Shown here one piece after another: positions 2,427 through 42,871 of a stretch of DNA of 64,000 nt (the stretch's first letter is position 1; each line of letters opens with the position of its first letter). Source of the stretch: Candidatus Stramentimicrobium fermentans (GTDB taxonomy: Bacteria > Atribacterota > Phoenicimicrobiia > Phoenicimicrobiales > Stramentimicrobiaceae); contig JAAYOB010000015.1 in NCBI GenBank assembly GCA_012520575.1, positions 40,705-104,704 on the forward strand. The letters are read 5' to 3'. The translations under genes and the position numbers were made by a program. The notes beneath the pieces were generated by a model that was given only the letters and a program-made list of their open reading frames with translations, had not been told where the DNA came from and did not search any database.

Positions 2427-3438
2427 AGCTTACCTCCAATTTTTCCGCCGCAACTGCAACTGTTACACCATTTAGAGTAGTTTTATTTACGATTAATCTA
2501 TCAGCACCTATTAATGCGGCTCGTTCACATACATTGTCCACACCTGCAACACTTTGCACAAACTCAGAGGTTGTGAACTCTCCCGGAACTTCCTGAAGCT
2601 CTGCAGTGGAATAGAAGATGGGTATTAGCCCGTTATCCTTACAGTATTTCAAAAGGCCTTCTTCATCCGCTTTCAGGTCGATGGATGCTACACACTTGAC
2701 AGCTTTTATATCAATTTCGTATTGCGCCAATACCGTTTTTATTGCGTCACGGATGACATAGTCTGAAGCACCTTTTCTGCAGCCGATACCTACATGCAGA
2801 ATTTTAGGGATTAACTTCAATGTTTGCTCAAAAGGAGCCTTTTGACGGTAGGAAATACAAATCCCCAATTCCCCGCTATTGCCGCTTACAACGCCATTTG
2901 GAAGCTCCGTTTTAATGGCAAAGTCACAGAAAAGCGGGATATCTCTCTCCAGAATAGCAGCCGATATTATTTTTGCAAGATAAATATTATCGATTACAAA
3001 GTTGTTTCTGGCAGCCCAGGCATCCACGGAAAATCTGTTGTTGATGTCAGTGGCAGTTGTAATTACCGGAGTGGCCTTGAGCCGGTCAGCTATTCTTATT
3101 GCCATTTCATTCGCGCCGCCGATATGTCCGGAGAGCAGGGGAATCGCAAAATGCCCCAACTCATCGATACAGACAACGGCTGGGTCGGTCCGCTTGTCCC
3201 GCACATGAGGTGAGATCTCCCGAACGGCAATTCCACAGGAACCTATGAAAATTAATGCGTCAGCCCGGTTAAATAGTTTCTCATAGAAAGGCTTTGCAGG
3301 ATGGCAGATCGGATAAAATCCTTCCTCTGCAAACCTTTCCATCGTATAAGCTTTGAAATCGGCCTCCGGAAAGTATGACATTACCTTACGCGCAGTAGAG
3401 CAGCCCCGGCGGCTGTAAGCAAATATAGCTATCTTCAT
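2419..3438 (-). CDS. cbiG: Cobalamin biosynthesis protein CbiG
   Basis: Track ORF, 339 aa. Sits between cbiF and cbiH as in anaerobic cbi operons. Overlapping start and stop codons. Confidence 0.8.
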   Translation of the reverse strand: MKIAIFAYSRRGCSTARKVMSYFPEADFKAYTMERFAEEGFYPICHPAKPFYEKLFNRADALIFIGSCGIAVREISPHVRDKRTDPAVVCIDELGHFAIPLLSGHIGGANEMAIRIADRLKATPVITTATDINNRFSVDAWAARNNFVIDNIYLAKIISAAILERDIPLFCDFAIKTELPNGVVSGNSGELGICISYRQKAPFEQTLKLIPKILHVGIGCRKGASDYVIRDAIKTVLAQYEIDIKAVKCVASIDLKADEEGLLKYCKDNGLIPIFYSTAELQEVPGEFTTSEFVQSVAGVDNVCERAALIGADRLIVNKTTLNGVTVAVAAEKLEVSFG

Positions 3439-4190
3439 TCTGTGGCCTCTCGATATTCTGTTGTAAAGCTCGGGTGGTACAGTAAAGAACGCAGATACTG
3501 ATCACCCATACAGTTTCCTACAACGATTAAGGAAGTTTTGGTCAGTCCGTTTTTCGTTATCGTTTGGTGTAGAGTTTCAACTGTGCAGCGGAATATCTTT
3601 TCTTTCGGCCATGTAGCCTTGTAGACCACTGCTACAGGTGTATCTCCGGGATATCCACCTGCAAGCAAATCCTCCTGTAGCACCTCAGTCAGGGAGGTAC
3701 TGAGAAACAGCACCATTGTAGACTGGTGGGCTGCTAGTGCACGGATGGACTCACGTTCAGGAACCGGCGTCCGTCCTGCGGTTCGGGTGATGATGACTGT
3801 CTGGCTGACATCCGGCAGAGTGTACTCTGTTTTCAGAGATGCTGCCGCACCGCAGAAAGAACTGACACCCGGACAAACATCATATTCAATATTCAGCTTG
3901 AGCAGCTCATCAAACTGCTCCCGAACTGCGCCGTAAATACTAGGATCCCCGGTATGGAGGCGTACAGTTACTTTTCCAGCCTCTTCTGCCTTTTTGATTA
4001 CTTCAATTACCTGTTCCAGCGTCATCTTTGAGCTATCATGAATCTCACAGCCCTCTTTAGTATAAGAAAGTAAGTCGGGGTTTACCAGAGAACCTGCATA
4101 AATTACTACATCGGCCTCGCTTATAAGGCGAGCGCCTCTTACTGTTATTAAGTCAACAGCGCCACTGCCTGCACCGACAAAATGCACCAT
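3435..4190 (-). CDS. cbiF: Precorrin-4 C11-methyltransferase
   Basis: Track ORF. Motifs MVHFVGAGSGAVDLITVRGARLISEADVVIYAGSL and GDPSIYGA. Confidence 0.85.
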   Translation of the reverse strand: MVHFVGAGSGAVDLITVRGARLISEADVVIYAGSLVNPDLLSYTKEGCEIHDSSKMTLEQVIEVIKKAEEAGKVTVRLHTGDPSIYGAVREQFDELLKLNIEYDVCPGVSSFCGAAASLKTEYTLPDVSQTVIITRTAGRTPVPERESIRALAAHQSTMVLFLSTSLTEVLQEDLLAGGYPGDTPVAVVYKATWPKEKIFRCTVETLHQTITKNGLTKTSLIVVGNCMGDQYLRSLLYHPSFTTEYREATE

Positions 4191-5958: not shown

Positions 5959-7318
5959 GACGATATCTCTCCTTTAGACAAGCATTGTAGAAATTGACTG
6001 CAAAACCGGGATTAGAATAAAAATGGAAGCAAGGATATCCGGCATAGAGTTGCTGCGTTGCGTGTACACATTTCCAGCTTTTTCCGGATGCTTTCGAGGA
6101 CGTAAAGGAACTTCCGTGATTCTCACTGTCCCAATAGTGGAATTCATGTCCGGAAATTTCTTCTCCGGATTTGCATAGCATATTATCATGATTGGCTTTC
6201 AGGTGAACATATCCAAATCTGATTAACTTTCCGGCATCAAAGCTTTTTCCGGGCAAGAAGCCCACCATAGGAAATTCGCTGATCGATTCCGTCAGATACA
6301 TGAAGCCGCCACATTCCGCGATACAAGGAATACCCTGCTCGAGAGCCGTTTTGACGGAAGTGCGCATAGCATTATTTTCACTGAGCCTCTCAGCATGTAG
6401 CTCAGGATAACCGCCTCCGAGATATAGTCCCTGAATATCGGGAGGTAACTCCTGGTCTGACAAGGGGCTAAATGGAACCAATTCTGCACCCATTTCCCGC
6501 AATGCATCCAGACTATCCTCATAATAAAAGCAGAAAGCATTGTCACGAGCCACAGCAATGCGGACCGGCTCCTGCTGGCGGGGTAGTTTTATCGCTTCGC
6601 AAGAAATGGAGGAAGATGTTGTAGCCAGCGCCAGCAGGCCGTCAAGATTAATAGTTTCCTCCGCCTGTACTGACAGATTTTGCAGTTTTTCACGCAGGAC
6701 TTGTACTTCTGCCGCAGTGATAAGTCCCGGATGGCGGCTTTCCAAAGAACATTCTGGCATCACAGGTAAAAAGCCAAGAGGTTGAACCTTGCCTGTAAAG
6801 CGTGTTTGAATCTCTTTTTCAAGGACAGAATAAGTCGTGGCGGTGCATTGATTCAGAATGACACCACAAATCTGATGATCAGGGCAAAAGTTCAAGAATC
6901 CTTGAATAGTAGCCAAGATAGACAGCGACGCACCTTTAGCAGCGACAACCAGAACAACCGGACTTTGCGTGACCTGTGAAATTTCATATGTGCTTGCAGT
7001 AGTCGTCGTTAAACTCATGCCGTCATAGAAGCCCATTACCCCTTCAATCACACTGATGTCCCGGCCAGATCCGTTCTTTGCCAACAGATATTTCAGTGTG
7101 TTCTCTTGAAAGAAAAATAAGTCGAGATTGGAACTTTTTACTCCGATAACCCGGCTGTGGAACATCGGGTCAATATAATCAGGTCCGCATTTAAACGCAC
7201 CGACTTTCAATTTACGATTGACCAGTGCTTGTAGGATGGCACATGTAACCGTTGTTTTGCCGCAGCCACTGTTTGTCCCGGCCAGAACAACTCTGGGAAT
7301 TATGTATTCCATGCCCAC
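5951..7318 (-). CDS. cbiA: Cobyrinic acid a,c-diamide synthase
   Basis: Track ORF, 455 aa. N-terminal P-loop GTNSGCGKTT plus a C-terminal glutamine amidotransferase part. Confidence 0.85.
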   Translation of the reverse strand: MGMEYIIPRVVLAGTNSGCGKTTVTCAILQALVNRKLKVGAFKCGPDYIDPMFHSRVIGVKSSNLDLFFFQENTLKYLLAKNGSGRDISVIEGVMGFYDGMSLTTTTASTYEISQVTQSPVVLVVAAKGASLSILATIQGFLNFCPDHQICGVILNQCTATTYSVLEKEIQTRFTGKVQPLGFLPVMPECSLESRHPGLITAAEVQVLREKLQNLSVQAEETINLDGLLALATTSSSISCEAIKLPRQQEPVRIAVARDNAFCFYYEDSLDALREMGAELVPFSPLSDQELPPDIQGLYLGGGYPELHAERLSENNAMRTSVKTALEQGIPCIAECGGFMYLTESISEFPMVGFLPGKSFDAGKLIRFGYVHLKANHDNMLCKSGEEISGHEFHYWDSENHGSSFTSSKASGKSWKCVHATQQLYAGYPCFHFYSNPGFAVNFYNACLKERYRHD

Positions 7319-8433
7319 ACCTCCTGCCTATCTTTGCTCCGATAAATGGGAATATTCTTTTCTTCTGCCAGTCGGAGGAGTTTACGGTTTAGTTGATTCA
7401 GTGTCCCCACCGGAGTTCCCGCATCAATCACCGCTTCACACCGGAGCAGGAGGTCAGAGGCTTTCTGAAACTGCACATCTGTCATTGCTTCAAATGCCGG
7501 AGTCACCACGGCGTGATCGCTCAATTCCAAGGCGACCTGACAATCCACATCGTTTTCAAAAAGGATTCCTGTCGCAAAGGGGATTTCCTGCTTTTGTAAT
7601 GCTCTATAGCAAGCGATACCATAACCGCCGCCGGCTACCACAAACACTTTTGGAGCGCCCTCCGGTTTTGTCAACTCAATACTTCCGAACAACAGATTAT
7701 ACGAGCCGTTGCGTAGTTCATAAAGATGTTCAATGGTGTGGTTTCCCAGAATAACATCCGGTGGACCAAAAGCCTCAATCGTATTACCTTTCACGCAGAG
7801 AAGATAATCGGAGATCTTTATAGCAAGGTCGATCTCATGCAAAGACATAATGACGGTGATATTCTTTTTTTGTGCCATCTCCCGAAGAATGTTCAGTAGT
7901 TCAATTTTGTGGCGAATATCTAAATAGGCAGTAGGTTCATCCAGGACAATTATCTCAGGCTCTTGACAAATTGCTCTTGCCAACATGATCCGCTGGCGCT
8001 GTCCATCTGAAAGGGTAGTAAAATACTGCCCTGCCAGATCAAGCGCGTGGACACGTTCCAACGCTTCCCGCACGACATCCATATCTTTTGGTGTCAGTTT
8101 GCCGAATAAGTTTGTATACGGATAGCGTCCCATAGCCACAACCTCTGCGCAGGTCATCAACTCAGGGCGAATTCGGTCAGTTAAAACGACTGCTACCTCT
8201 TTTGCCATATCTTTGGGCGACCAGGAGGAGATTTCCTGCGCATTGATATAGACTGTTCCTCGAATCGTCTCCAACTGGCGGGTAATAGATTTAAGGATCG
8301 TAGACTTGCCTGCCCCGTTTGGCCCAATTAATGTGAGGATTTTTCCTTTTTCCAGTTGCACATTGATATCGTAGATCAAAATCTTTCCATTATAGCCAAC
8401 CGCCAGATTTTCGGTTTTAAAGTAGTATTCCAT
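7300..8433 (-). CDS. ABC transporter ATP-binding protein (FecE/BtuD family) with an unexplained C-terminal extension of about 115 aa
   Basis: Walker A GPNGAGKST, signature LSDGQRQR, Walker B IIVLDEP. The protein is 377 aa against about 260 aa for the family. The tail KVFVVAGGGYGIACYRALQ... looks like a small Rossmann-like domain. Confidence 0.8.
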   Translation of the reverse strand: MEYYFKTENLAVGYNGKILIYDINVQLEKGKILTLIGPNGAGKSTILKSITRQLETIRGTVYINAQEISSWSPKDMAKEVAVVLTDRIRPELMTCAEVVAMGRYPYTNLFGKLTPKDMDVVREALERVHALDLAGQYFTTLSDGQRQRIMLARAICQEPEIIVLDEPTAYLDIRHKIELLNILREMAQKKNITVIMSLHEIDLAIKISDYLLCVKGNTIEAFGPPDVILGNHTIEHLYELRNGSYNLLFGSIELTKPEGAPKVFVVAGGGYGIACYRALQKQEIPFATGILFENDVDCQVALELSDHAVVTPAFEAMTDVQFQKASDLLLRCEAVIDAGTPVGTLNQLNRKLLRLAEEKNIPIYRSKDRQEVWAWNT

Positions 8434-8434: not shown

Positions 8435-9565
8435 TCAATCCTCTTGCGTCCAACGGCGCTTTGCCATCATATAAATAACAACAGGCGCACCGAAAACGGA
8501 AGTGACGGTGCCAATTGCCAGTTCAGTGGGCGCAAAAACGGTTCTTGCAATCAAATCACAGAATACACAAAATACCGCACCGCAAAGAAAGGTAGACGGT
8601 ATTACAAAGGCCGGCTTCGATGATTTCAACAGTGTCCGGGTAATATGGGGAACTGCGATACCGACAAAGGAAATAGGGCCGGCAAGAGCCGTCACACACG
8701 CAGACAGCAGACTGGAGAGCAGTATCAGCAAAACACGGAACGGTTTGATGCGCATGCCCATACTTTGGGCATAACCTTCACCCAACGCATATGCAGATAT
8801 AGGTTTGGAGAGTAAGAGTGCCGCCACAATTCCCGGTATACACATCAGCACAGCAGTACTTACATTATCCCAACTGGCCCCGGAGAATGTACCCATAGAC
8901 CAGTTTTTCAAATTAACTACATCATGGTCATCCGCAAAAGTAATGCAAAAATCGGTCACCGCACTGCAAATGTAGCCAACCATGATACCGATCACCAACA
9001 GCATCGAGACATTCCGCACCTTCTGAGAGAATAGCAGAACGATAGAAGTAATCAGTAAGGAGCCCAGAAATGCAGCCAAAATCAGTGCAAGAGAGCCAAC
9101 GCTGCCAATATAATGGATCAGAAAAATCAGCGTAATACCCACGACCATCTTTGCACCGGAAGAAATACCCAGGACAAAGGGGCCTGCGATGGGATTACGG
9201 AAGAACACCTGAAGAAGATAGCCGGACACGGATAGTGCGCCACCTAAGATTGCGGCAAGTAGCATGCGCGGAATGCGAATACTGAACAGGATTTGGCTTT
9301 TGGTAGAGTTCTTAATAACAGCTTCCAGTTCCTGTGCATATCCGCCATTGGTAAACGCATTGGCAATCCCATACCGGATACCCTCCCAAAGCATGCGGAA
9401 TACATCCTGCACCGCAATAGAAACGGAGCCGATATTGACATTTATAATCAATGCCAGAATCAGCAGGCCGCTTAACAGGAGCATGATAAAAGAAAAACGG
9501 CCAATATTGCCGAGCCTGATTTTTTCTTTATTCATAGAGGGTGTACTATTCTTGTTTATTTTCAT
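8435..9565 (-). CDS. FecCD-family ABC permease (corrinoid/iron-complex importer)
   Basis: 376-aa polytopic membrane protein with BtuC/FepD-like sequence. Confidence 0.8.
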   Translation of the reverse strand: MKINKNSTPSMNKEKIRLGNIGRFSFIMLLLSGLLILALIINVNIGSVSIAVQDVFRMLWEGIRYGIANAFTNGGYAQELEAVIKNSTKSQILFSIRIPRMLLAAILGGALSVSGYLLQVFFRNPIAGPFVLGISSGAKMVVGITLIFLIHYIGSVGSLALILAAFLGSLLITSIVLLFSQKVRNVSMLLVIGIMVGYICSAVTDFCITFADDHDVVNLKNWSMGTFSGASWDNVSTAVLMCIPGIVAALLLSKPISAYALGEGYAQSMGMRIKPFRVLLILLSSLLSACVTALAGPISFVGIAVPHITRTLLKSSKPAFVIPSTFLCGAVFCVFCDLIARTVFAPTELAIGTVTSVFGAPVVIYMMAKRRWTQED

Positions 9566-9666: not shown

Positions 9667-10809
9667 TCACTGTAACCGATAAAGGTAGGGCAATTCATCC
9701 AACTCATCTACTTCACCGGAGAAAATCTTCCGGAAGCTTTCAATCATCTGACCAAGTCTCATGGTTTCCTGATGCATATTTTTACTCATGCACCAGGCGT
9801 TACCGTTTTGGACGGCCTTGAATTCTGCCAGGAGCTTATTCTTTGCTAACAATTCATCAATGGTTCTGATTTCCCCGCCAATGGTGCTGTTGTAGATAAT
9901 ATAATCTGCATCTTTTGCCGTGGCAAAAAACTTTTCCATTTCAATTGGCACGGTCGAGGTTCTGGTTTCGGGATCACCAAGGTTATCGAACACATAGCTG
10001 CCGCCAGCCAGTTCCAGCATTTTTGTTACATAGTCGCCATTTTTTCTGGCAACAACGTAATTGGAAGAGCTGATATGGAAAAATGCAACCGTTTTACCGG
10101 AACTTTCTGCACTCATTTCTTTATTCAGATAATCGACCTGCTCTGCAAACAGGGCGTTTGCGGTTTCTTCTTCATTCAGCAGGGCACCATACAGCTTAAT
10201 CCATTCCGTGCGTCCAAGGGGGTGCGGCTCCATACTGGACTGGTCAACAAGCACTGCAATACCCAACTCTTCCAGTTTTTCCTTTACTTCGGAGGCACGT
10301 CCGATCATTAGAGATTCAATTGCCAGAGGGCAACCATAATCTAGCAACATCTCATAGTCCGGCTCGCTGTACTTTCCGGCATATAAGATTTTACCTTCCT
10401 GCATTGCCAGTCGGGCATTTTCAATATGCCAGCCGTCTTCACGGGTTCCGGACAGTCTGATGACATCTAATCGCTCCAGAGCATCAAACAGGCACATAGA
10501 GGCGGTTGCTGCCAGATAAATATTCTCCAAAGGCTGATATAGAGGGACGATATCTTTAGCAACCCCTTTGGGTAGCTCAGAGCCATCCGGTATCACCAGG
10601 AATCTGCTCCCATCTGCCAGAGAAATCAACTTATAACCACCCGTGTAATAATCTACGGAAAACTGTGTGGCAAACTGCAGCTCCATACTGCACTCTGGCT
10701 CCCAACCGTTCCCCGGACCTTCTTTCGTTTCAGTTGTTTTGCAACCACAGAGAACCGAGAGTAGCAAGACTACCGTTAAGCAAAATACAATGCAGCGCCT
10801 CATACTCAT
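9667..10809 (-). CDS. Periplasmic/lipoprotein substrate-binding protein of an ABC importer (BtuF/FhuD class)
   Basis: Signal peptide with lipobox (LSVLCGC). Cluster-A SBP fold-like sequence. Adjacent to permease and ATPase genes. Confidence 0.75.
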   Translation of the reverse strand: MSMRRCIVFCLTVVLLLSVLCGCKTTETKEGPGNGWEPECSMELQFATQFSVDYYTGGYKLISLADGSRFLVIPDGSELPKGVAKDIVPLYQPLENIYLAATASMCLFDALERLDVIRLSGTREDGWHIENARLAMQEGKILYAGKYSEPDYEMLLDYGCPLAIESLMIGRASEVKEKLEELGIAVLVDQSSMEPHPLGRTEWIKLYGALLNEEETANALFAEQVDYLNKEMSAESSGKTVAFFHISSSNYVVARKNGDYVTKMLELAGGSYVFDNLGDPETRTSTVPIEMEKFFATAKDADYIIYNSTIGGEIRTIDELLAKNKLLAEFKAVQNGNAWCMSKNMHQETMRLGQMIESFRKIFSGEVDELDELPYLYRLQ

Positions 10810-11198
10810 TCTCCTTTGATTGCAGAACTATTAAAGTGCAGTGTGTATTCTATCAGATGAGGTTCGCTCATTGCAATGGTAGAAGCACTGACCGCCATAT
10901 CTTTATCTAAGACAACAGGAATTTCAAAAGTTGAGTTGCCCTCAGTCCGGATGGGATTATACTGAACACCGTCAACAAGCATGTATTCATAATAGGGGCT
11001 GCTCCACACAATCGTTGCGGTAATCATTTCGCCTTTCACCATGATTTTTGCAGGAGACTCAACGCTTGCCCGGCCGGAACCGCCGGACAAAGTTACTTCA
11101 ATTTTATAATTTCCGTCTGTTAACTCTTTTTCGCTGCAGGCAATAAAAAGGGTACAAATGAGTAAACAGGAAAGCAGGATTGCGATCGTTCGTGTCAT
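10806..11198 (-). CDS. Small lipoprotein of unknown function; candidate surface tetrapyrrole/corrinoid-binding domain
   Basis: Signal peptide plus lipobox (LFIACS). Its domain of about 100 aa is paralogous to the next gene. Lies inside the B12-riboswitch operon. Confidence 0.5.
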   Translation of the reverse strand: MTRTIAILLSCLLICTLFIACSEKELTDGNYKIEVTLSGGSGRASVESPAKIMVKGEMITATIVWSSPYYEYMLVDGVQYNPIRTEGNSTFEIPVVLDKDMAVSASTIAMSEPHLIEYTLHFNSSAIKGE

Positions 11199-11202: not shown

Positions 11203-11766
11203 TTACCTCACAATCAGTGCGTCAGCAGGAAGATCATCCGACTGGAAAATGAGTGTGCGGTCATACCACTTTTTCTTTCTAATACTCCATGCGGCACAGT
11301 CCAATTCCATATCAAGTGCTTCGACGGGAACCGTAAAGGTTTTAGCCCCTTCTTCGTTCAGAACAAAAGGAATATAGTTTTCCTCAGTATCAAGTAAAGC
11401 TTCTTTACCGGTACCCATATATACCATACCATAGCCGCTGCCGCTCATAGTCATAATGGCTTTCATTGCATTATTTTCTACGATTAATTCACACTTGATT
11501 ACGCGGAACATAGATGAGCTGGAATCTAAGGTGATTAGGTATGATCCATCCTTTAAACTGCTTGCGTAAATGGGTTTCAGAATATCATCCTCTGTAACCG
11601 TTGTGAAAGTATCATTCGATATCACAGAGTTCTCTGTGTTCTCAGAAACATTGGCTTGAGGCACAGGTTCCACGGTATTGTTGTCTACGGGCTCTTTATT
11701 TATTGTGTAACCTGATAAGACTGTTACCAAACAAAAGAACAGCACGAAAATCAGCGTTTTTTTCAT
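11203..11766 (-). CDS. Secreted protein, paralog of the 10806-11198 product, with an N-terminal low-complexity linker
   Basis: Signal peptide. The C-terminal domain aligns with the neighbour: LKDGSYLITL...MKAIMTMSGSGYGMVYMGTG...KTFTVPVEALDMEL matches LTDGNYKIEV...MITATIVWSSPYYEYMLVDG...STFEIPVVLDKDMAV. Confidence 0.5.
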   Translation of the reverse strand: MKKTLIFVLFFCLVTVLSGYTINKEPVDNNTVEPVPQANVSENTENSVISNDTFTTVTEDDILKPIYASSLKDGSYLITLDSSSSMFRVIKCELIVENNAMKAIMTMSGSGYGMVYMGTGKEALLDTEENYIPFVLNEEGAKTFTVPVEALDMELDCAAWSIRKKKWYDRTLIFQSDDLPADALIVR

Positions 11767-12821: not shown

Positions 12822-13090
12822 CTATAAAACAAAAAACTGCGGCAGTCGCAAAACTGCCGCAGCCGATTTCCTGCAAAGTAAGATGTTTATTTCTCCATAA
12901 ATCGAGAACAAATAGACAGCAAACACGTTTAAGCAGGTCTCCTGACTCGCGTATCATAAGCTCTCCGCACTGTCTTCTCAGGATTGCTCCCAATGACTGA
13001 CTTTCGTCGCGTGCGGTGCCTCCACGCATACAGTGGCGGTACCGTCCCGGATTTTAACCGGGTTCACTATTCTCCACCAATTCCTGTCAA
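12822..13090 (-). promoter_or_regulatory. Cobalamin (AdoCbl) riboswitch with an intrinsic-terminator expression platform
   Basis: Minus-strand RNA carries GTGAACCCGGTTAAAATCCGGGACGGTACCGCCACTGT, then GGGAGCAATCC, then a B12 box GAGTCAGGAGACCTGC. A terminator hairpin CTGCGGCAGTTTTGCGACTGCCGCAG plus a T-run follows (plus-strand 12822-12862). Confidence 0.85.
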
Positions 13091-13133
13091 AATTGGTGAC
13101 ACTTAAACGGTGTATTCTATTCAACTGTCATTT

Positions 13134-13508: not shown

Positions 13509-13527
13509 AAAAAAAATAAATATCGAA

Positions 13528-13775
13528 TATTAAATTTTACAGATCACGGAAGCTGTTGAGAATACAGCACAGCCCCGCTACTGTGATAAGGGACTGATTG
13601 GACATAGGCCACTGAAGCAATTCGGGAAGGCGTCATAATCGGGATGATCTTTAAGTCAGGAGACGGTCTATAAAATTCAAAATGGCTTACTTCGAGGGAG
13701 GTAGGTGCTTTTTTTTGTGCGCTTTTAAAGCCTCTATCTAAAATACGAAGTATCGATAGAGGCTTTTTTATTATT
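13528..13775 (+). promoter_or_regulatory. Cobalamin riboswitch with terminator platform
   Basis: Motifs GTTGAGAATACAGCACAGCCCCGCTACTGT, GCCACTGAAGCAATTCGGGAAGG and the B12 box AAGTCAGGAGACGGTC. A terminator GCCTCTATC...GATAGAGGC plus a T-run lies just before the RBS AGGAGG of the 13793 gene. Confidence 0.8.
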
Positions 13776-13792: not shown

Positions 13793-14938
13793 ATGAAAAC
13801 TAAATTTTCAAAAACACTTTTAGTTCTGCTGTCTATTTTTTTGTTGATGGTGCTGACAGCTCCTTGCAGTTCAAATAATACCGACAAGACAGGTGAAGAA
13901 GTCGTTGCCAATGAAAAAACCCCAGAACCCTCACAATCAACCAGAGAGATTACTGATGCACAGGGGAATACATTGACCGTAGCTAAAAATATTGGAAAAA
14001 TAGCGGTTGACCAATGGGGTACGGCCGATATTGTTGTGTCCGTATTAGGCGAAGAGGCTATGGATAAAATCGTAGCGGTTGGGATAACCAAAAGTTACAA
14101 CCAGATTAAAGGCATATATGGCAAATCATACCCGCAAATAAACAACCTGCCGTCAATTGGCGGTGGCAGAAGTAGTCCAATAGATGCAGAAAAAATCATA
14201 TCGCTCCAACCTGATTTATATATGATTGCTAATTATAGCGAAAACTCCGACGATTTAATTGGAAAACTTGCCAAAGCAAATATCCCCACCGTCATATTGA
14301 ATATCAGCGAAGAGCCTTCCCAATCTCCGCAAAACGCTATAAAAATAGTGGGAGAGCTTTTCGGTGTGCAAGAAAGAGCTGACGAAATAGCAGGATTTAT
14401 AGATTCACAATATAAGTTGATTGAGAGTAAAAACCTTGAAGATAAGAGAAACAAGCCTACCGTATACATGGAAAAAGGTTCGGGCACTAAGGACGAGTAT
14501 GACGTAACCTGGTCAGATCAAAGTGCCTGGGGCAAAATTGTAACGAAAACTGGCGGAAAAAATATAGTAGATAGTTCACTGGGAAATAGCGTTAAGATAG
14601 ATTCCGAGTTTTTGTTATCCGGCAATCCCGACTATATCATAATTGCCGGCAGTGTTGGAATAGGGACTGATTTGGAAGAAGGCCAAGAACTCATCAGATC
14701 ATATACACAAAGAACGGGTTGGCAAAATCTGGATGCTGTGAAAAATAACAATATCTTTCTCATCGGTCATGGTCAAGAGAGAGATCAGTTCTGCTTTTTC
14801 CCGCACTTAGTCATGGCAAAAACCTTTTATCCTGAGGATTTTGTGGATATTGAACCTTTAGAAATATTGAAAGAATTTTACGACAAATATATGTTGTTAG
14901 ATTTTGAAGACGGACATTGGTATATCAAATTAGAATAG
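13793..14938 (+). CDS. ABC importer substrate-binding lipoprotein (corrinoid/iron-complex class), paralog of 17527-18612
   Basis: Signal peptide with lipobox (LTAPCSS). FhuD/BtuF-like. RBS AGGAGG. Confidence 0.75.
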   Translation: MKTKFSKTLLVLLSIFLLMVLTAPCSSNNTDKTGEEVVANEKTPEPSQSTREITDAQGNTLTVAKNIGKIAVDQWGTADIVVSVLGEEAMDKIVAVGITKSYNQIKGIYGKSYPQINNLPSIGGGRSSPIDAEKIISLQPDLYMIANYSENSDDLIGKLAKANIPTVILNISEEPSQSPQNAIKIVGELFGVQERADEIAGFIDSQYKLIESKNLEDKRNKPTVYMEKGSGTKDEYDVTWSDQSAWGKIVTKTGGKNIVDSSLGNSVKIDSEFLLSGNPDYIIIAGSVGIGTDLEEGQELIRSYTQRTGWQNLDAVKNNNIFLIGHGQERDQFCFFPHLVMAKTFYPEDFVDIEPLEILKEFYDKYMLLDFEDGHWYIKLE

Positions 14939-14952: not shown

Positions 14953-15993
14953 ATGCAACTATCTCCGGGCAAAGCCCTGTATAGTAATATTGTCAGCAAG
15001 AAAAAATACATAATTGTTTTCTTAATCATCGCAATTGTTATATCTTTTATTGTCAATCTATTTGTTGGCAGCGCCGGTTTAACTCTAGTAGAAACGATCA
15101 ATGCTATTTTCGGTGATTCTAGTAAAATCAACCGTGTCATCGTTTGGAGCATTCGTATGCCTGTCGCGATATCTGCCATTTTAGTAGGGGCTGCTCTTGG
15201 AATAGGTGGCTGTGAAATGCAAACCATATTGAATAATCCCATGGCAAGTCCCTACACCCTGGGTATTTCATCAGCAGCATCTTTCGGAGCTGCCCTAGTC
15301 ATCATATTAAGAATCAGTATATCCCCGTTTTTTGATAATATCTTAATCAGTTTATCCGCATTTTGCTTTTCTATACTGGCTTCCTTTTCTATTTTTACAC
15401 TATCAAAGCGATTTGGTTGGGATCGGGGTGTACTGATATTGTTCGGTATTGCGATGAGTTTTTTGTTTAATGCCCTGACTACCTTTTTGCAATTTATCGC
15501 TGACCAAAACGATTTGCAATCATTTATATTTTGGTCATTTGGAGATTTAACCAAGATCAATTGGACGCAAATTCTAATCTTGTTTATTGTTTTAATCGTC
15601 ATTTATACTCTATTTTTCAAAAAATCCTGGCACCTTACGGCTGTTACTCTTGGCGATTCTGCAGCTTTAAGCTTGGGCATAGATGTTAAAAAAATGAGAC
15701 GAACCGTTATCATTATGGTCGCAATACTTTCTGCTACATCGGTCAGTTTTGCCGGAACAATAGGTTTTGTAGGAATCGTTGCCCCGCATATCGCACGCAT
15801 GATCGGCGGAGAAGATCAGAGGTTCTTGTTGTCTATTTCCGCATTGGTGGGCGCATTGATGCTGTCTGTAGCATCTACCTTCGGCAAAACTTTAGTTCCG
15901 GGGGTTATTCTGCCGATCGGACTCGTAACTTCCATGGTAGGGATTCCATTTTTCATTTATTTGATATTACAGCATAGAGGTGGCATGAAATGA
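14953..15993 (+). CDS. FecCD-family ABC permease
   Basis: 346-aa membrane protein with BtuC/FepD-like sequence. Confidence 0.8.
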   Translation: MQLSPGKALYSNIVSKKKYIIVFLIIAIVISFIVNLFVGSAGLTLVETINAIFGDSSKINRVIVWSIRMPVAISAILVGAALGIGGCEMQTILNNPMASPYTLGISSAASFGAALVIILRISISPFFDNILISLSAFCFSILASFSIFTLSKRFGWDRGVLILFGIAMSFLFNALTTFLQFIADQNDLQSFIFWSFGDLTKINWTQILILFIVLIVIYTLFFKKSWHLTAVTLGDSAALSLGIDVKKMRRTVIIMVAILSATSVSFAGTIGFVGIVAPHIARMIGGEDQRFLLSISALVGALMLSVASTFGKTLVPGVILPIGLVTSMVGIPFFIYLILQHRGGMK

Positions 15994-16781
15994 TACGCAC
16001 TGAAAATCTCGTATTTGGTTACCATAAGCATGTACCCGTACTCAAAGAATTATCTGTCGATTTTGACGCTGATCTCAATGTAATAATAGGGCCTAATGCC
16101 TGCGGAAAGTCAACACTGCTCAAATGCCTATTCGGAATACTTAATTACGAGGGAAAAGTGTTTTGGAACAATCAGGACTTGTCCAAATTGGATTTTGAGG
16201 AAAAAGCTCAACTGATGGCGTATCTTCCTCAAGGAGATGTAGAAAATACATCACTCACAATCTTTGAAACTGTACTGTTGGGCAAAGTCGCTTCCCTGTC
16301 TTGGAAAGTAACCGATGATCAACTTGATGAGGTTTATAATGTCCTGAATACCATGAATTTACTCCCTATTTACGACAAAAAGATCAATGAACTTTCCGGA
16401 GGTCAGAAAAAGCTGGTAACCATAGCCCAAACTCTGATCAGAGAGCCGGAGCTGATTATTATGGACGAACCGACCAATAATCTGGATATTCAAAAACAAC
16501 TTGAACTTTTCGATATCATCAGACAAATCATCAAACACAAAAAAATCAAATTCATTATCGTATTGCACGACATCAATGTTTCCACAAGATACGCGGACAA
16601 AATCATCGTCCTAAACGACGGTAAAAAATATGCTTGCGGACAACCTGAGGAAATCATCAATGTCGCTATGCTTAAAGATGTATACGGGGTACACGGCAAA
16701 TTGGTTAAAGACCAAAATGATACAACCTTTGTCGTAGCAGAATCATCAGTAAATGAAATCAATTTATTTGGAAAGGAGTAA
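15990..16781 (+). CDS. ABC transporter ATP-binding protein (FecE/BtuD family)
   Basis: Walker A GPNACGKST, signature LSGGQKK, Walker B IIMDEP. Confidence 0.85.
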   Translation: MIRTENLVFGYHKHVPVLKELSVDFDADLNVIIGPNACGKSTLLKCLFGILNYEGKVFWNNQDLSKLDFEEKAQLMAYLPQGDVENTSLTIFETVLLGKVASLSWKVTDDQLDEVYNVLNTMNLLPIYDKKINELSGGQKKLVTIAQTLIREPELIIMDEPTNNLDIQKQLELFDIIRQIIKHKKIKFIIVLHDINVSTRYADKIIVLNDGKKYACGQPEEIINVAMLKDVYGVHGKLVKDQNDTTFVVAESSVNEINLFGKE

Positions 16782-16784: not shown

Positions 16785-17530
16785 ATGTCTCGTGTCTATA
16801 TCATTGCGGGCGGTCCGGGAGACCCGGAGCTTATTACGTTAAAAGCAAAAAAATAATCGATACCTCGGATTATATTTTTACGAGCGAACGATTTATCAAT
16901 AAAAAAATGTTTGTAGATACGAAAAGCAGTTGTCGGATATTAGATACTTTTACGTATACGTACGATGAAAAATTGGATTATACGAAAAAAGCAGTAGCGG
17001 AAAATAAAATCCTGTCTTTTATCACTATGGGAGATCCTGCTTTATATGGCATGGTAGGTGGACTTATTGACAGATTTGAAAAGAACGATATTGCTTTCGA
17101 GATTATACCGGGCGTGAATGCCGCTATTGCATCATCCGCAGTTCTTAAACGCGGGTTAACAGGTATGGGGGTAACAAATACTTTCGTATGCACCAGCTAT
17201 AACAATCATGACAAATCAAGAAAAAACCTAGAAAAAATAGCGGCTCTGGGTTGTACTGTATCGGTATTTATGGGGATAGATAATCTGAAAGAAATTATAG
17301 ACATTTTTGCAGCATATAGAAGTAAACAGACACCCATAGCCATTGTATCTAATGCTACCTGGCACAATGAAAAAATAATCCATGGTAATCTTGGCAATAT
17401 TATGGACATATTTAATCACGACAAAGTGGAAGGGGGGTTGATTTTAATTGGAGATTTTTTAAATAAAGAATACGATTATGATTTGGAAAGACAGTTTATA
17501 GAAATGAAGAAAAAAGAGGTGAAAAAATGA
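16785..17530 (+). pseudogene. Tetrapyrrole (corrin/porphyrin) methylase, CbiF/CobM-like, with a disrupted N-terminal region (frameshifts)
   Basis: The ATG at 16785 gives MSRVY. The conserved motif YIAGGPGDPELITLKAKK lies in a second frame and ends at a TAA inside an A7 run (16846-16852). The sequence continues as IIDTSDYIFT... in another frame into the track ORF 16907-17530 (GDPALYGMVGG, PGVNAA). My nucleotide reading places that ORF's ATG at 16906, which disagrees with the track by 1 nt, so the number and position of frameshifts are uncertain. Confidence 0.55.
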
Positions 17531-19004: not shown

Positions 19005-19835
19005 ATGAAAATTAAAAAATACTTGCCTGCACTTAGCATGTGGCTCTTGTTTGAAATTATTGCTGTAACGACATGGCTTACAATGGGTCCGATATTTTAT
19101 CTTTTTAATTTTACGTATATCGGAACGTCAATTGCGATAGGTTTAATACTATATACCCAAAAGAAAAAATATGCCCGCAGTGTGGTTCAGCTTGCAGTCG
19201 GTTTGTATATGCTCGTGTATCTGGGTATCATCTGCCGGGAAAATATGCAGATAGAGGGCTTTTGGTTTTATCTTTTTCTCGGAGTGTTTTCAGCCGGTAC
19301 ACTCCATTATGCTATTGCAAAAATTTTCGGTCCTTTGCTCTTTGGTCGCGGTTGGTGTGGCTATGCTTGTTGGACGGCGATGGTATTGGATTTTCTTCCG
19401 TTCAAAACGCCTGCCGGCCCTCGAAAATCCATAGGCTTTATTCGCTACATTGTTTTTATAGCTTCATTCATATTTGTCGCCTTACTCTTTATTCTGCAAG
19501 TTCCTGATATAGAGTATATCATGTGGTTGTGTTTTATTATTGGAAACATTATCTATTATATAGTCGGAATAGTTTTAGCCTACAAATTTAAGGACAACAG
19601 AGCTTTTTGTAAATATATCTGCCCCATTACTATCTTCTTAAAGCCGATGACCTATTTCTCTCTCACCCGTGTTAGGGTAGATAAAGAGAAATGTATTTCT
19701 TGTGGAAAATGCGAACAGGTATGTCCAATGGAGGTGGAAATTCTCAATAATTCCCGGAAACGAAAAAACGGCACCGAGTGCATTCAGTGCATGCAATGTG
19801 TAGATGCTTGTCCCAAAAATGCCTTAAAAATTTAG
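19005..19835 (+). CDS. Integral membrane 4Fe-4S polyferredoxin (NapH/MauN-like)
   Basis: Several TM helices plus a C-terminal CISCGKCEQVCP and CIQCMQCVDACP ferredoxin motif. Confidence 0.6.
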   Translation: MKIKKYLPALSMWLLFEIIAVTTWLTMGPIFYLFNFTYIGTSIAIGLILYTQKKKYARSVVQLAVGLYMLVYLGIICRENMQIEGFWFYLFLGVFSAGTLHYAIAKIFGPLLFGRGWCGYACWTAMVLDFLPFKTPAGPRKSIGFIRYIVFIASFIFVALLFILQVPDIEYIMWLCFIIGNIIYYIVGIVLAYKFKDNRAFCKYICPITIFLKPMTYFSLTRVRVDKEKCISCGKCEQVCPMEVEILNNSRKRKNGTECIQCMQCVDACPKNALKI

Positions 19836-21710: not shown

Positions 21711-23048
21711 TTATCTTTGCAATTCTTTATTAATTATTTTTCGAACTACAATACGGTATCCTTCTACTTTAATAACTTTCACTTTTTCATTAGATTCTAA
21801 AAAACCGCTTTCACTAACCGCATCATATCTTTTTCCTTCTATTTCAATCTTACCGGTTAGACGTAAAGGAGTGATGGTTTGACCTTCTTTGCCCAGCAGA
21901 AAACTATAATCTGTACCTGAACTATAACCGGCCTCACGGGTAGCCGATTGGGATAGTACAAAACTTTTTAAAGCACCTTTACGTTGTAAATATTTGAAGG
22001 ATAAAAAGCTTCCAATTCCGGCAATAAGAAGAGAGATTAAAAGCATGTATATTCCGTAAGCAGTCGAGGCAGCTGACAGAATGATAGATATGATAACTGC
22101 AACCAGACCGGTTATACCAAAAATACCAAAACCGGGAATAAATGCCTCTATCACCAGCAGTACAATACCGAAAAGGAAGAGCAGGGTGGCAGGCCAACCG
22201 CTGACTCCGGTCAAAAAATGTCCGCCAAAGTAAAGACCGAAAGAGAATATACCCAAAAGCCCTCCTATACCAAAACCGGGAGTTAATATCTCTACTACCA
22301 CAAAGAAAAAACCCGACACTAAGAGCAGGGTGGCAATTATCGGATTTATCAGCCAGCCGCTAAGTCTTTCCCAGAAAGTAGCCGAACTATATATCAATTC
22401 GCTCCCCGATAAGTCAACCCGGTCCAGAAGTTCTGATATAGAATTTACGGTGCCGTCACTGAAAGAGAGTTTTTCTGCCTCCTGAGCGGTAAGGGTTAAT
22501 AGTTCCCCTACTTTTACCAGTCCATTGATAGCCAGTTGTCTGCGTACCATGGCTGCTGCAATAAGCGGGTCTTTTCCACGTCTTTCGGCAGTGCTTCTCA
22601 TCTCGGCTTCCCAAAAGGAGATTACCTTTTCGTCTACTTGACCACCGCCTAATAGTATTGGCTCTGCCGCCCCAATGGTAGAGCCGGGAGTCATAAAGAA
22701 CTTATCAGTAGCTAAGGCCAGATACGCACCGGCGGAAAGGGCATCAGTGTTGATATAAGCATATACCGGTATGGTAAATTCATCGAGGAGTTTCTTAGCA
22801 TCACGGGCTGTGTCTATAAATCCTCCCGGTGTGTCTAAATCCAGAACAACAGCTTGTGCCCCGGATTCTTGCGCCATCTTTAGAGAGCGTTCTAAAAAAA
22901 GCAGCCAGCCGGGTTCTATCTGCCCTTTAACCGGTATGACGTAGACTGAAACAGAGCTTGCCTGCAGAACCAGGGAGCTACATAAAAGCAATATGGCTAA
23001 AATGACAAAAACAAAAGAGAATTTTCTTTTCAATAAATTGACCTCCAT
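21711..23048 (-). CDS. nfeD: NfeD-family membrane-bound serine protease (ClpP class), partner of FloA
   Basis: Signal/TM segment, a ClpP-like domain, internal TM helices and a C-terminal OB-fold. Lies immediately upstream of floA. Confidence 0.7.
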
Positions 23049-23415: not shown

Positions 23416-24210
23416 TTACATAATGACTTGTGGAATGGACAGCTCGGGGTGTTGTATGATATATGGTTTGGTGCGGTATACTTTTTTTAAGTTGTATTCA
23501 TTGATAACCTCTTGCGGAGTACCTATCGTTTCAATTCGACCCTTGTTTAATAGAATGAGCTGATCAGAACAGAAGCTCGCTAGATTAAGGTCATGGAAAA
23601 CAGATATAATACATTTTAATTCTTTCTTTAAAGCGTCTTGGAGAATTTTGCTGATCTCGTATTTATAACTTAAATCTAAATGTGATGTGAACTCATCCAG
23701 CATAAGTATCCGGGGAGTTTGTGCCAGCGCCCGGGCAATTTGCACCCTTTGTTTCTCACCGCCGCTGATCTGATGGATTCTCTTCTCGGCATAACCTAAA
23801 GAATCTGTCCTTTCCATAGCATCATACGAAATCTGATAATCTGGAATTGTTTCACCTTTCCACTGATTGATATAGGGAATTCGGCCCATAAAGACTATCT
23901 CTTTTATCTTGTAGTTATAGGCAACATAGGATTCTTGTGGAACCATAGAGATAATCTTAGCCATTTCACGGCGTGGTATTGTTCTAACATTCCGGTTGTC
24001 TACTTTTACTTCTCCTTTTTGAGGGGTAAGAATACCTGATATTAGTTTTAGCATGGTAGTCTTCCCTGAGCCGTTGGGACCAATAATGCCTATAAATTTC
24101 CCGGGGAAGAGAGACAAATTTATCTCTTGAAGTACCGGTTGGCTATTATAAGAAAAGCTAACTCCTTCCAAAGAGACAATCGGTTTAGAATCAATATCCA
24201 TCAGAATCAT
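23416..24210 (-). CDS. ABC transporter ATP-binding protein (FecE/BtuD family). The start is probably the internal Met MILMDIDSK rather than the track's first Met.
   Basis: Walker A GPNGSGKTT, signature ISGGEKQR, Walker B LMLDEFTSHLD. Confidence 0.8.
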   Translation of the reverse strand: MILMDIDSKPIVSLEGVSFSYNSQPVLQEINLSLFPGKFIGIIGPNGSGKTTMLKLISGILTPQKGEVKVDNRNVRTIPRREMAKIISMVPQESYVAYNYKIKEIVFMGRIPYINQWKGETIPDYQISYDAMERTDSLGYAEKRIHQISGGEKQRVQIARALAQTPRILMLDEFTSHLDLSYKYEISKILQDALKKELKCIISVFHDLNLASFCSDQLILLNKGRIETIGTPQEVINEYNLKKVYRTKPYIIQHPELSIPQVIM

Positions 24211-25249
24211 TCCTCCTTTTGAGCAGGTGAATAAAGAGCGGTGCACCTATTAGAGCTGTGATTGCCCCGATAGGTATCTCGTTGGGCGCCATAATACTGC
24301 GTGCCAGGGTGTCACAGATAAGCAAAAAAAGAGAACCCATTAAAGCTGAAGCCGGGAGCATAATACGATGGTCAGGCCCTACCAGCAGGCGGGCAATATG
24401 GGGAATTACCAATCCCACAAAACCAATTAGCCCGGTAAAAGAGACCACCGCAGCAATCATCATGGAGCCCGTCAGAAATATTTTAAGTCTTAATTTGCCG
24501 GTCTGTATACCTAGATGTAATGCTTCTTCCTCACCCAGTGCCATAGCATTTAGCTCCAGGGCAGCAGATATCTGATATATGGTTCCTGCAAAGGCCGGTA
24601 GAGCAATCCAGGATACTTTTTGCCAGCTGGCGGTAGATAAATCTCCCATTAGCCAGAATAACATGGAATGTGTTCCCCGTCTGGAAATAGCTAAGAGCAG
24701 GGTAATGATAGCCGAGAAGAAAAAATTAATTGCTACTCCTGATAATAAAAGGTCTGTGGTAGGTAAATGCAATCTTTTCCTGGATAAAAGATATACTAAA
24801 TAGATAGAAACGAAGGAGCCAAAAAGGGCAAAGACCGGCAAAAATGGAGCCAGAAACAATCCCATGGTGTATTGAAAAGCAATAGCAATACAAGCCCCTA
24901 AAGCCGCTCCTGCCGATACCCCCAGAATATAGGGATCAGTAAGTGGATTTCTTAGGATTCCCTGAAAACTTCCACCTACCACAGCGAGTGCCATACCTGC
25001 AAGCATAGCCATTATTAATCTTGGTAAGCGCAGTTCCCAGATAATAAGTCCCAAGCTATCATCTGTTTGGTGTTGCCATATGATAGACCATATTTTTTGG
25101 GGCTGAATAGCAATAGCACCAAAATTTAAAGCAATAAAGCCAATAATAAGAATTGAAAAAAAGCCAATAATCAGTATAAAAAAGGCCTTAGAGCGCCAAT
25201 TGGGATAACCATAATATTCATTTTTCTCTGACTTGGGTAAAAATTTCAT
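24191..25249 (-). CDS. FecCD-family ABC permease
   Basis: 352-aa membrane protein with BtuC-like sequence. Confidence 0.8.
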   Translation of the reverse strand: MKFLPKSEKNEYYGYPNWRSKAFFILIIGFFSILIIGFIALNFGAIAIQPQKIWSIIWQHQTDDSLGLIIWELRLPRLIMAMLAGMALAVVGGSFQGILRNPLTDPYILGVSAGAALGACIAIAFQYTMGLFLAPFLPVFALFGSFVSIYLVYLLSRKRLHLPTTDLLLSGVAINFFFSAIITLLLAISRRGTHSMLFWLMGDLSTASWQKVSWIALPAFAGTIYQISAALELNAMALGEEEALHLGIQTGKLRLKIFLTGSMMIAAVVSFTGLIGFVGLVIPHIARLLVGPDHRIMLPASALMGSLFLLICDTLARSIMAPNEIPIGAITALIGAPLFIHLLKRRNDSDGY

Positions 25250-26156
25250 AAAGGAGTTCTAATCCATCGACCAGACGAGGACCTTCACGGTAAAAAAGGT
25301 CTTCATTCACGGTAAAAATTTGATTATTTCTGATAGCCGGTATCTGAGACCAACCCGGATGGTCAATCACATCTTGCTTCATCTTATCAGTCTCTTCAGG
25401 GTTCATAATGCCACTGGAAATAATAATAATGTCCGGCTCTGCCTGTGCCACTAATTCTGCACTGACAGGTACCCATCCTTCTAAATTCGCCACAATATTT
25501 TGCCCACCGGCTAAAGTAATTAATTCATCAAATATGGTACCCTTACCCGGACTCCAGATGGTCTCATAGTTTGAACCGGTAAATACTTTTAACCTGTCTG
25601 TTTCTGTTATTGCGGTATTTAGAGATGTAATCAGGTTGATACGTTCCTGTAGATTTGCAATCAGTTCTCTTCCTTTTTTCGGTTCTCCACAGGCAGTCGA
25701 AATAAGCTCTATAGTAGCTAGCATTTCATATAGGGAGGTTGGCTCGGTTACCAATACCTTGAAACCCAATTCCCTCAGTCTGGGAATTTCCTTGGCCTGA
25801 TATCCTCCATAAGCCAAGACTAAGTCTGGTTTTAAGGAAATAATTTTTTCTAGATTCAAAGGTGACATTAAACCGATATTCTCAATATTTTCGGCTTCAA
25901 GAGGATAATTACAAAATTCACTCCTACCTACCAGTTTGTTCTCCAGTCCCAAAGCAAAGATGATTTCAGTGGTGTGGGGTGCGATAGAGATGATTCTTTC
26001 CGGTTTTTGTAGAAGGGTGACTTCTGTGTTCAGGACATCAACTAAAGTGATTGGAAATAAATTATCCTGTGAGTTTCCCCATACCGGAAAAGATATAAGT
26101 ACAAGCAGAGATAGCGTTAAAAGTATAGCCATGGGCATCATTAATCTTTTGTGCAT
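25218..26156 (-). CDS. btuF: BtuF-like periplasmic cobalamin-binding protein
   Basis: Signal peptide. RIISIAPHTTEIIFALGLENKLVGRSEFCNYP matches the BtuF N-lobe. First gene after a B12 riboswitch. Confidence 0.7.
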   Translation of the reverse strand: MHKRLMMPMAILLTLSLLVLISFPVWGNSQDNLFPITLVDVLNTEVTLLQKPERIISIAPHTTEIIFALGLENKLVGRSEFCNYPLEAENIENIGLMSPLNLEKIISLKPDLVLAYGGYQAKEIPRLRELGFKVLVTEPTSLYEMLATIELISTACGEPKKGRELIANLQERINLITSLNTAITETDRLKVFTGSNYETIWSPGKGTIFDELITLAGGQNIVANLEGWVPVSAELVAQAEPDIIIISSGIMNPEETDKMKQDVIDHPGWSQIPAIRNNQIFTVNEDLFYREGPRLVDGLELLYEIFTQVREK

Positions 26157-26204: not shown

Positions 26205-26402
26205 AGAACACACCCTTTGACCACGAAAGAGTGTAACGGGTTCCCAACAGGCAGGTCTCCTGGCTTGAGGCTGTCTAATTGCTGCGCCTTCCCAAAACTT
26301 TTGTTCCAGTGGCGTTATGCAGCTTTCGGTACCTTTTACAGTAACGGGCTTGCGGTGGATTTGCACCACACTTCCCTTAACCTGTCAGGATAATATATTC
26401 AG
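26205..26402 (-). promoter_or_regulatory. Cobalamin riboswitch with terminator platform
   Basis: Minus-strand RNA carries GGTGCAAATCCACCGCAAGCCCGTTACTGT, then GCCACTGG, GGGAAGGCGC and a perfect B12 box AGCCAGGAGACCTGCC. The terminator is ACACTCTTTcgtggtcAAAGGGTGT plus a U-run. Confidence 0.85.
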
Positions 26403-26567: not shown

Positions 26568-27083
26568 GTGAAAGGCTTGATACAGGTTTATACCGGTAGC
26601 GGTAAGGGGAAAACGACCGCAGCGCTGGGGCAAGCTGTGAGGGCTGCCGGGCGGGATAAAAAAGTCTTAATAGTGCAGTTTATGAAAAAATGGGATTATG
26701 GTGAACTGCATTCTCTCAAAAATATACCGGAAATAACTCTCAAAACATTTGGTACCAAAGACTTTATCTATAAGGGCAAAGCCAAAGAGATTGATTTTGA
26801 AGAGGCCAAAAGGGCTTTTGCTGAAGGGGTAGAAGGTGCCTTAAGCGGAAAATATGATATAGTTATTTTTGATGAACTAAATGTGGCTCTGGATTTTGGT
26901 CTTTTAAAAATCAAGCAGGTATTGGATTTTTTAAAAGCAAAACCGAGAACCGTAGAAGTAATAATTACCGGTAGAAATGCTCCTGCAGAAATAATAGATT
27001 TAGCAGATTTGGTAACTGAAATGAAAGAAATCAAGCACCCCTTCCAGAAGGGTATTTCAGCTAGAATTGGTATAGAGTACTAA
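26568..27083 (+). CDS. cobO: Cob(I)yrinic acid a,c-diamide / corrinoid adenosyltransferase (CobA/BtuR/CobO type)
   Basis: GTG start with RBS AAGGAG. MKGLIQVYTGSGKGKTTAALG P-loop. C-terminal HPFQKGISARIGIEY. Confidence 0.85.
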   Translation: MKGLIQVYTGSGKGKTTAALGQAVRAAGRDKKVLIVQFMKKWDYGELHSLKNIPEITLKTFGTKDFIYKGKAKEIDFEEAKRAFAEGVEGALSGKYDIVIFDELNVALDFGLLKIKQVLDFLKAKPRTVEVIITGRNAPAEIIDLADLVTEMKEIKHPFQKGISARIGIEY

Positions 27084-41153: not shown

Positions 41154-41249
41154 GGGAGTGGATAGGTTCTGGTGGACCTTGCGGACTTCAAATCCGTGGG
41201 CGGTAATTTATCATTACCGCGGTGGGTTCGATTCCCACCCCTCTCGCCA
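41154..41249 (+). tRNA. selC: tRNA-Sec (selenocysteine tRNA, anticodon UCA)
   Basis: GGGAGTGG-AT-AGGTTC/TGGT/GGACCT (6-bp D stem with 4-nt loop). Anticodon arm GCGGA-CTTCAAA-TCCGT identical to E. coli selC GGACTTCAAATCC. Long variable arm GCGGTAAT-TTATC-ATTACCGC. T arm GTGGG-TTCGATT-CCCAC. 3' G-CCA. The acceptor stem pairs imperfectly in my hand fold. An intrinsic terminator follows. Confidence 0.8.
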
Positions 41250-41263
41250 TTTTAAACTGAAAA

Positions 41264-41316
41264 TACCCATTCTGGACCGGAAAAGTTTTCCGGTCTGGAA
41301 TGGGTTTTGTTTATTA
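41264..41316 (+). terminator. Rho-independent terminator after selC
   Basis: CCCATTCTGGACCGG...CCGGTCTGGAATGGG, a 15-bp stem with two G-U pairs, followed by TTTTGTTTATT. Confidence 0.65.
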
Positions 41317-42865: not shown

Positions 42866-42871
42866 TTTGCT

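Follow-up and report, generated by a model that had tools for sequence, protein, structure and literature searches.

In the window (the whole 64-kb stretch of DNA analysed here), an operon led by a cobalamin riboswitch encodes an ABC importer and, between its ATPase and a second substrate-binding protein (SBP), a CbiF-like tetrapyrrole methylase whose reading frame is broken. This is the arrangement that the original prediction had described, and the Pfam and Rfam matches and the coordinates agree with it. The features of the operon are as follows.

13523 to 13686, plus strand: cobalamin riboswitch aptamer heading the importer operon (Rfam RF00174, 90.8 bits)
13685 to 13706, after the riboswitch: hairpin resembling an intrinsic terminator (terminator scan)
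13709 to 13716, after the riboswitch: T8 run (run scan)
13793 to 14938, plus strand: substrate-binding lipoprotein 1 (SBP1), 381 aa, Peripla_BP_2 (Pfam, 99.8 bits)
14953 to 15993, plus strand: FecCD-type ABC permease, 346 aa (Pfam FecCD, 278.6 bits)
15990 to 16781, plus strand: ABC ATPase, 263 aa (Pfam ABC_tran, 94.7 bits)
16785 to 16856, plus strand: 5' methylase fragment of 23 codons, including the GGPGDPELIT SAM loop, with a premature TAA at 16854 to 16856; its translation equals residues 1-23 of the intact protein P0001
16847 to 16853, plus strand: A7 homopolymer, site of the 1-nt deletion; A8 in intact alleles (GCA AAA AAA ATA)
16853 to 17530, plus strand: the other 225 codons of the methylase, read in the -1 frame and coding for residues 24-248 of P0001 at 100% identity
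17527 to 18612, plus strand: substrate-binding lipoprotein 2 (SBP2), 361 aa (Pfam Peripla_BP_2, 83.5 bits)

All other genes of the importer operon are intact in the window. The start of SBP2 overlaps the stop codon of the methylase (ATGA) and has its own ribosome-binding site, AGAGGTG. In composition the operon is a BtuFCD-type importer, with an RF00174 riboswitch followed by a terminator, a FecCD permease, an ABC ATPase and class III SBPs that are Peripla_BP_2 lipoproteins, and the same composition of riboswitch, permease, ATPase and class III SBP is found in the orthologous operons, save for the riboswitch in one of them. It differs from BtuFCD-type importers in that its fourth gene encodes a cytoplasmic methylase and in that the window species carries a second SBP. 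The best NCBIfam match of the permease is BtuC, with 216 bits, which is under the cut-off of that model. The SBPs are unlike BtuF: SBP1 scores 26.5 bits against the BtuF equivalog NF002894, far under its cut-off of 234, SBP2 gives no match to this model, and the closest structures to both are 4MO9 and YiuA-type metal-chelate binders rather than BtuF. We infer the cargo of the importer, be it a corrinoid, a precursor or a cobalt chelate, solely from the riboswitch.

The methylase gene begins at ATG 16785-16787, and GGAG at 16775-16778, 6 nt upstream, provides a good ribosome-binding site. From this ATG, frame 0 encodes MSRVYIIAGGPGDPELITLKAKK and then meets TAA 16854-16856. The disruption lies at the A7 run, 62 nt inside the ORF, as had been predicted, but the stop codon, which had been placed inside the run, follows directly 3' of it. 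The rest of the gene does continue in another frame: the -1 frame is open from before position 16790 until the stop at 17528-17530, and from the ATA codon at 16853-16855 onward it encodes the remainder of the PF00590 domain, which in the window is divided between the two frames. Insertion of one A (A8) yields a continuous ORF of 248 aa, which matches Pfam TP_methylase PF00590 over profile positions 1-211 of 212 (134.8 bits, threshold 27.8), so that an intact methylase is indeed obtained when one A is added. A protein of 248 aa that is 100% identical to the repaired one (P0001) is present in public collections and is encoded in conspecific strains. K22-K23-I24 of the intact protein are coded in the stretch GCA AAA AAA ATA, and the junction K23-I24 is spanned by LKAKKIIDTSDYIFTSER.

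The ORF called at this place, 16907-17530 (207 aa), is the ATG-initiated part of the -1-frame remainder; it is the only one listed because 16907 is the first ATG in that frame, which also accounts for the disagreement of 1 nt reported earlier between the base-level reading and the ORF coordinates. Re-initiation at ATG 16907 as a source of a functional product is unlikely, as no Shine-Dalgarno (SD) sequence precedes this ATG; moreover, the residues that such a product would lack (1-40) include, in the AlphaFold model of the intact protein, the GPGD SAM loop as well as the first beta strand. In public annotation the gene stands as a 207-aa 'precorrin-4 methylase' or as a 254-aa hypothetical protein, neither of which is a real product, and the practical weight of the frameshift is therefore one of annotation.

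Relation of the methylase to CbiF and to the importer

A canonical CbiF is encoded in the neighbouring cbi operon, 13 kb from the broken gene, where it is flanked by CbiD, CbiC, CbiA, CbiG and CbiH.

3435 to 4190, minus strand: canonical CbiF (cobalt-precorrin-4 C11-methyltransferase) of the neighbouring cbi operon (TIGR01465, 334.3 bits, cut-off 259.65)
12915 to 13121, minus strand: divergent cobalamin riboswitch leading the cbi operon (Rfam, 93.4 bits)

Against the same CbiF/CobM equivalog TIGR01465 the repaired methylase scores 152.1 bits, below the cut-off of 259.65, and its identity to the genome's own canonical CbiF is 26%. Judged by sequence, the broken gene is a paralogue and not the CbiF of the cell. 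Its resemblance to CbiF/CobM (TIGR01465; PDB 4e16, 1cbf, 2cbf, 3ndc) lies in the class III SAM-methyltransferase fold, in a length that is about the same and in the SAM motifs. The AlphaFold model of the intact protein (pLDDT 78.8) has the two-domain alpha/beta fold of CbiF/SUMT, Foldseek aligns this model to 4e16 and 1cbf with TM scores of 0.79-0.84 and E values of 1e-19 to 1e-20, and the profile match of the intact protein to 4e16 reaches 176 bits. It differs from CbiF/CobM not only in the low identity and in the sub-cut-off score, but also in the replacement of pocket residues, in an added C-terminal helix and in its location, since it is found in no cbi cluster (0 of 10 lineages) and always follows an importer ATPase.

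The broken gene falls within a very small clade derived from CbiF, the members of which are 48-68% identical. In a profile search of 1.84 billion representatives clustered at 50% identity, the clade is present as a single full-length protein (397 bits). Fusions that would link the clade to transporters were also considered and did not appear, the next matches in this library (235 bits or less) being multi-methylase or CbiF-CbiG fusions that show no tie to transporters. Members of the clade keep the SAM-binding motifs GxGPGD, GDPxxYG, PGV and ATW. On the other hand, R79, E93, E124, Q132 and the segment TRxxGRTPxPE of canonical CbiF are replaced across 16 clade members by F, G, G, N and 'TSYxDxxxS', respectively (residues are numbered by the paralogue, and T143 and E147 lie within the TRxxGRTPxPE segment), whereas each of R79, E93, E124, Q132, T143 and E147 is conserved at 91-100% in 99 canonical CbiF sequences. 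The extra C-terminal helix, KEYDYDLERxFxERKK, is itself conserved in the clade. Matches from Dehalococcoidia/SAR202 with 30-37% identity were rejected as members of the clade because they represent canonical CbiFs whose genes lie in cbi clusters; across 43 Dehalococcoidia/Chloroflexota and related loci, the canonical matches stand in the order CbiC-CbiD-CbiF-CbiG-CbiH.

The original prediction had allowed that orthologous operons might lack the methylase altogether, and this is not the case. The clade gene directly follows a FecCD permease and an ATPase in 10 of 10 lineages (the window species, L013-L017, L098, L099/L100, L101/L102 and L105), the operon order being either SBP-permease-ATPase-methylase or permease-ATPase-methylase-SBP. 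A cobalamin/AdoCbl riboswitch lies upstream in eight of the nine operons with a scannable upstream region, the exception being L098. The nearest orthologues of the operon are found in Tissierellia and Clostridia metagenome-assembled genomes (MAGs). Since this context is conserved in every orthologue examined, the place of the methylase in an uptake operon is no accident, and the methylase belongs to the importer cassette as a fixed part. In the most distant orthologous operon (L098, 4137-8747) a gene for a class I SAM methyltransferase (269 aa, Methyltransf_11/25/31) precedes SBP, permease, ATPase and the CbiF-like methylase, and no riboswitch was detected at this locus at the Rfam threshold.

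Alleles of the A tract and the nature of the break

Both states of the tract are found among strains of the window species. In look-ups of assembled contigs indexed by protein, on which all of these allele counts rest, and with a check at the DNA level, the in-frame A8 was recovered from 11 independently assembled contigs (L001-L008 and L095-L097), and the frameshifted A7 was recovered from the window, L009-L012, L093 and L094. L009 is probably the window's own contig and was left out of the independent count, which leaves A7 in at least six other independent assemblies from differing projects and assemblers (L010, L011, L012, L093, L094 and one NCBI MAG, in which the -1-frame ORF has been annotated as a 254-aa 'hypothetical protein'). 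The 207-aa product encoded by A7 has entries in 38 collection blocks. Among the 18 conspecific sequences no tract length other than A7 and A8, such as A6 or A9, was seen.

The two alleles differ in their backgrounds. Five A7 sequences (the window and L009-L012) are 0-3 SNPs apart over a 12.6-kb alignment around the gene, and the short A7 contigs L093 and L094 have one private SNP each in a 2.6-kb alignment of the operon. The A8 sequences are spread over at least five haplotypes, whereas the A7 sequences share one that is nearly identical. Around the tract, about 6.5 kb of three A8 contigs (L002, L004 and L007) are the same as in the A7 haplotype but for the extra A. The sister lineages L103 and L104 (94% protein identity) have an in-frame A8; dN/dS is 0.16-0.25 for these lineages against the intact allele, and 0.29 between the two sisters. 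We infer that the ancestral gene was intact and that purifying selection acts on it. The haplotypes, although they are told apart by few SNPs, point to A7 as a real and recent deletion from A8, with a single origin, in a widespread clone.

A second, independent homopolymer frameshift of the methylase was observed near its 3' end in another metagenome contig of 1,628 bp (P0126, …VEGGVDFNWRFFK), in the G6 run that lies at 17432-17437 of the window; either an error of sequencing or another null allele may lie behind it.

The break is a genuine and ordinary homopolymer deletion at the level of strains, and it most likely marks the gene as an early pseudogene; a decaying pseudogene was one of the options put forward with the original prediction. 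As to its cause, a natural loss-of-function allele, produced by a one-off and recent slippage deletion from A8 to A7 in a non-essential, importer-linked paralogue of CbiF, is the explanation that we consider probable. The other options named with the prediction, namely sequencing error, phase variation and programmed frameshifting, fare less well. That the true genome has A8 and a continuous ORF would be a natural suspicion at a homopolymer, as these are classic sites of error, and the repaired ORF does exist in databases. However, the occurrence of A7 in at least six other assemblies and its tracking of one haplotype exclude an artefact of a single assembly, the agreement extends over several projects and assembly programs, and pipelines of the same kinds also recover A8, so that an error of sequencing or assembly is barely credible.

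It is also conceivable that the tract is a reversible on/off switch of a contingency gene, alternating between A8 and A7 by slipped-strand mispairing within populations. The run is near the 5' end of the gene, 62 nt into the ORF, both lengths are found in nature on identical local backgrounds of 2.6-6.5 kb, as a reversible switch predicts, and the G6 run of P0126 adds another homopolymer frameshift in the methylase. Nevertheless, only two lengths were seen in 18 conspecific sequences, a sample of low diversity, and all copies of A7 are confined to one extended haplotype while A8 occupies at least five. Moreover, orthologues do not conserve the tract: in three of them (L015, L016 and L099) AAG, CAA or AGA codons break the run. 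The tract is the plain outcome of Lys-Lys-Ile codons at 40.6% GC; in the 64-kb window, which has this GC content, there are 58 A/T runs of 7 nt or more, ten of which reach 8 nt. Phase variation does not usually target cytoplasmic enzymes either. For these reasons we regard such a switch as unlikely.

With respect to recoding, the A7 allele might yield the full-length enzyme by -1 ribosomal frameshifting on A_AAA_AAA, aided by the adjacent TAA, or by slippage of RNA polymerase that adds an A. The site is formally suited to this, with a perfect X_XXY_YYZ heptamer in frame 0 and a stop codon directly after it (GC A_AAA_AAA TAA, 16847-16856). In an IS family, this heptamer with a stop behind it has been proven to act as a -1 slippery site under stimulation by a stem-loop, and A7 and U7 runs are under-represented in all three frames of E. 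coli genes, with slippage and indels suggested as possible reasons (PMC4066793). In the window, however, the 90 nt downstream of the tract have a minimum free energy of -11.8 kcal/mol, against -12.5 ± 2.8 for shuffled sequences (z = +0.26), which leaves no sign of a stimulatory structure. There is likewise no properly spaced SD-like element, the nearest GGAG lying 17 nt upstream within the constrained GPGDPE codons. Slippage on merely seven A residues is expected to be inefficient. In addition, the gene is in a single frame in the 11 A8 conspecific contigs, in the two sister lineages and in nine other orthologous lineages. The Lys-Lys-Ile/Val tract of the more distant orthologues, always in frame, is A8 in L017, A7 in L013, L014, L105 and L101, and A6 in L098. 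That the A7 allele is expressed as full-length enzyme by recoding is thus very unlikely. Low-level adventitious read-through of A7 is conceivable, with no sign of selection for it.

The loss-of-function reading may be pictured as follows. Replication slippage would have removed one A from the A8 of K22-K23-I24 and shifted the frame, so that translation of the A7 allele ends after 23 residues, just beyond the SAM-binding GPGD loop. Only chance slippage on A_AAA_AAA would account for any full-length product still made from A7. The allele probably arose once, recently, on the commonest haplotype of an uncultured species of anaerobic digesters, and is now borne by a clonal lineage that has been sampled in many reactors. 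Loss of the methylase step is plausibly tolerated, because the genome encodes the whole cbi pathway, a CbiF included, as well as two further B12-regulated importers and BtuR.

Pseudogenes and polymorphisms caused by homopolymer indels are known from other bacteria. The 'savior' poly(A) slippage reported for endosymbionts and that reported for tssM of Citrobacter rodentium resemble the present case in that a single-base indel in an A run truncates a gene that is otherwise intact, and low-level rescue by slippage is conceivable (PMC5009743; PMC4256274). The window allele differs from these cases in the shortness of its run, 7 A, and in that the intact allele still segregates within the species; signs of rescue did not emerge from the analysis.

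Possible role of the intact protein

The clade most likely processes or binds an imported tetrapyrrole. A salvage or remodelling function, suggested with the original prediction, is a conjecture. Because the CbiF fold and the SAM motifs are kept while conserved residues of CbiF are replaced and a C-terminal helix is added, we would expect the intact protein to bind SAM together with another ligand of the tetrapyrrole type, and to act on, or to receive, what the importer delivers. It may be that the cytoplasmic protein receives a tetrapyrrole or corrinoid from the importer for methylation, or at a minimum for binding, and that this substrate differs from cobalt-precorrin-4. The intact gene itself is a conserved accessory of a small subfamily of FecCD-type ABC importers controlled by cobalamin riboswitches.

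A bolder proposal, which we put forward tentatively and hold to be possible but somewhat doubtful, is that the intact protein and its approximately 15 relatives constitute a new CbiF-derived enzyme family that is mechanistically coupled to a dedicated B12-regulated importer, and that carries out SAM-dependent modification or SAM-linked capture of an imported corrinoid or tetrapyrrole chelate. If this were true, the family would represent a step that present-day schemes of cobamide salvage and remodelling do not contain, and the A7/A8 polymorphism would offer a natural pair of knock-out and wild type in which to study its function in biogas communities. Our search of the literature for a CbiF paralogue or tetrapyrrole methylase tied to corrinoid transporters found nothing relevant. 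It appears that the importer-linked family of CbiF paralogues is uncharacterised, which is a modestly new point. The presence of a CbiF-derived methylase with a remodelled pocket as the fourth gene of a riboswitch-controlled cassette, in several lineages resembling Clostridia and Tissierellia, is a hint that corrinoids or tetrapyrroles may undergo a cytoplasmic step, as yet undescribed, during their uptake or salvage. Given the rarity of the family, its general impact would be modest unless its chemistry is new.

Neighbouring loci and variation among strains

The divergent cbi operon runs from 12724 down to 1695 and encodes, as identified by Pfam and NCBIfam, CbiK, two further ORFs, an importer, CbiA, CbiC, CbiD, CbiF, CbiG and CbiH. 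CbiK has an N-terminal extension of approximately 33 residues. The importer between CbiK and CbiA is complete and of the FecCD type, on the minus strand, with an SBP (9667-10809), a permease (8435-9565) and a 377-aa ATPase (7300-8433); beside it stand the two ORFs, of 187 aa (11203-11766) and 130 aa (10806-11198), neither of which has a Pfam match. A third importer, at 23416-26156, has the most BtuF-like SBP (124 bits) and adjoins BtuR/CobO at 26568-27083. Altogether, three cobalamin riboswitches (12915-13121 and 26233-26400 on the minus strand, 13523-13686 on the plus strand) and three FecCD-type importers are found within 26 kb in an organism that is a de novo producer of B12.

Other differences among strains were noted around the operon. 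In L002 and L095 an insertion of approximately 531 bp, with an IS200-type Y1 transposase, lies at the position corresponding to 19534 of the window and splits a Fer4/NapH-like, ferredoxin-like gene (19005-19835); the window and most other strains are without it. An NfeD-like gene (21711-23048, minus strand) encodes 445 aa in the window and L009 and 440 aa in L001 and L010-L012, and its length therefore varies even inside the A7 lineage. The proteins NLL61718-NLL61767, of an NCBI MAG labelled 'Candidatus Atribacteria bacterium', are identical to those of the window; set against the Tissierellia and Clostridia orthologues of the operon, this label may reflect a problem of binning or classification. 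Farther downstream, at 41154-44740, three features stand in succession: a tRNA-Sec (Rfam, 73.3 bits), a 476-aa ORF (41435-42865), possibly selA, and selB (42872-44740, the name given in a public record); with tRNA-Sec and selB, the organism appears to have the machinery for decoding selenocysteine.
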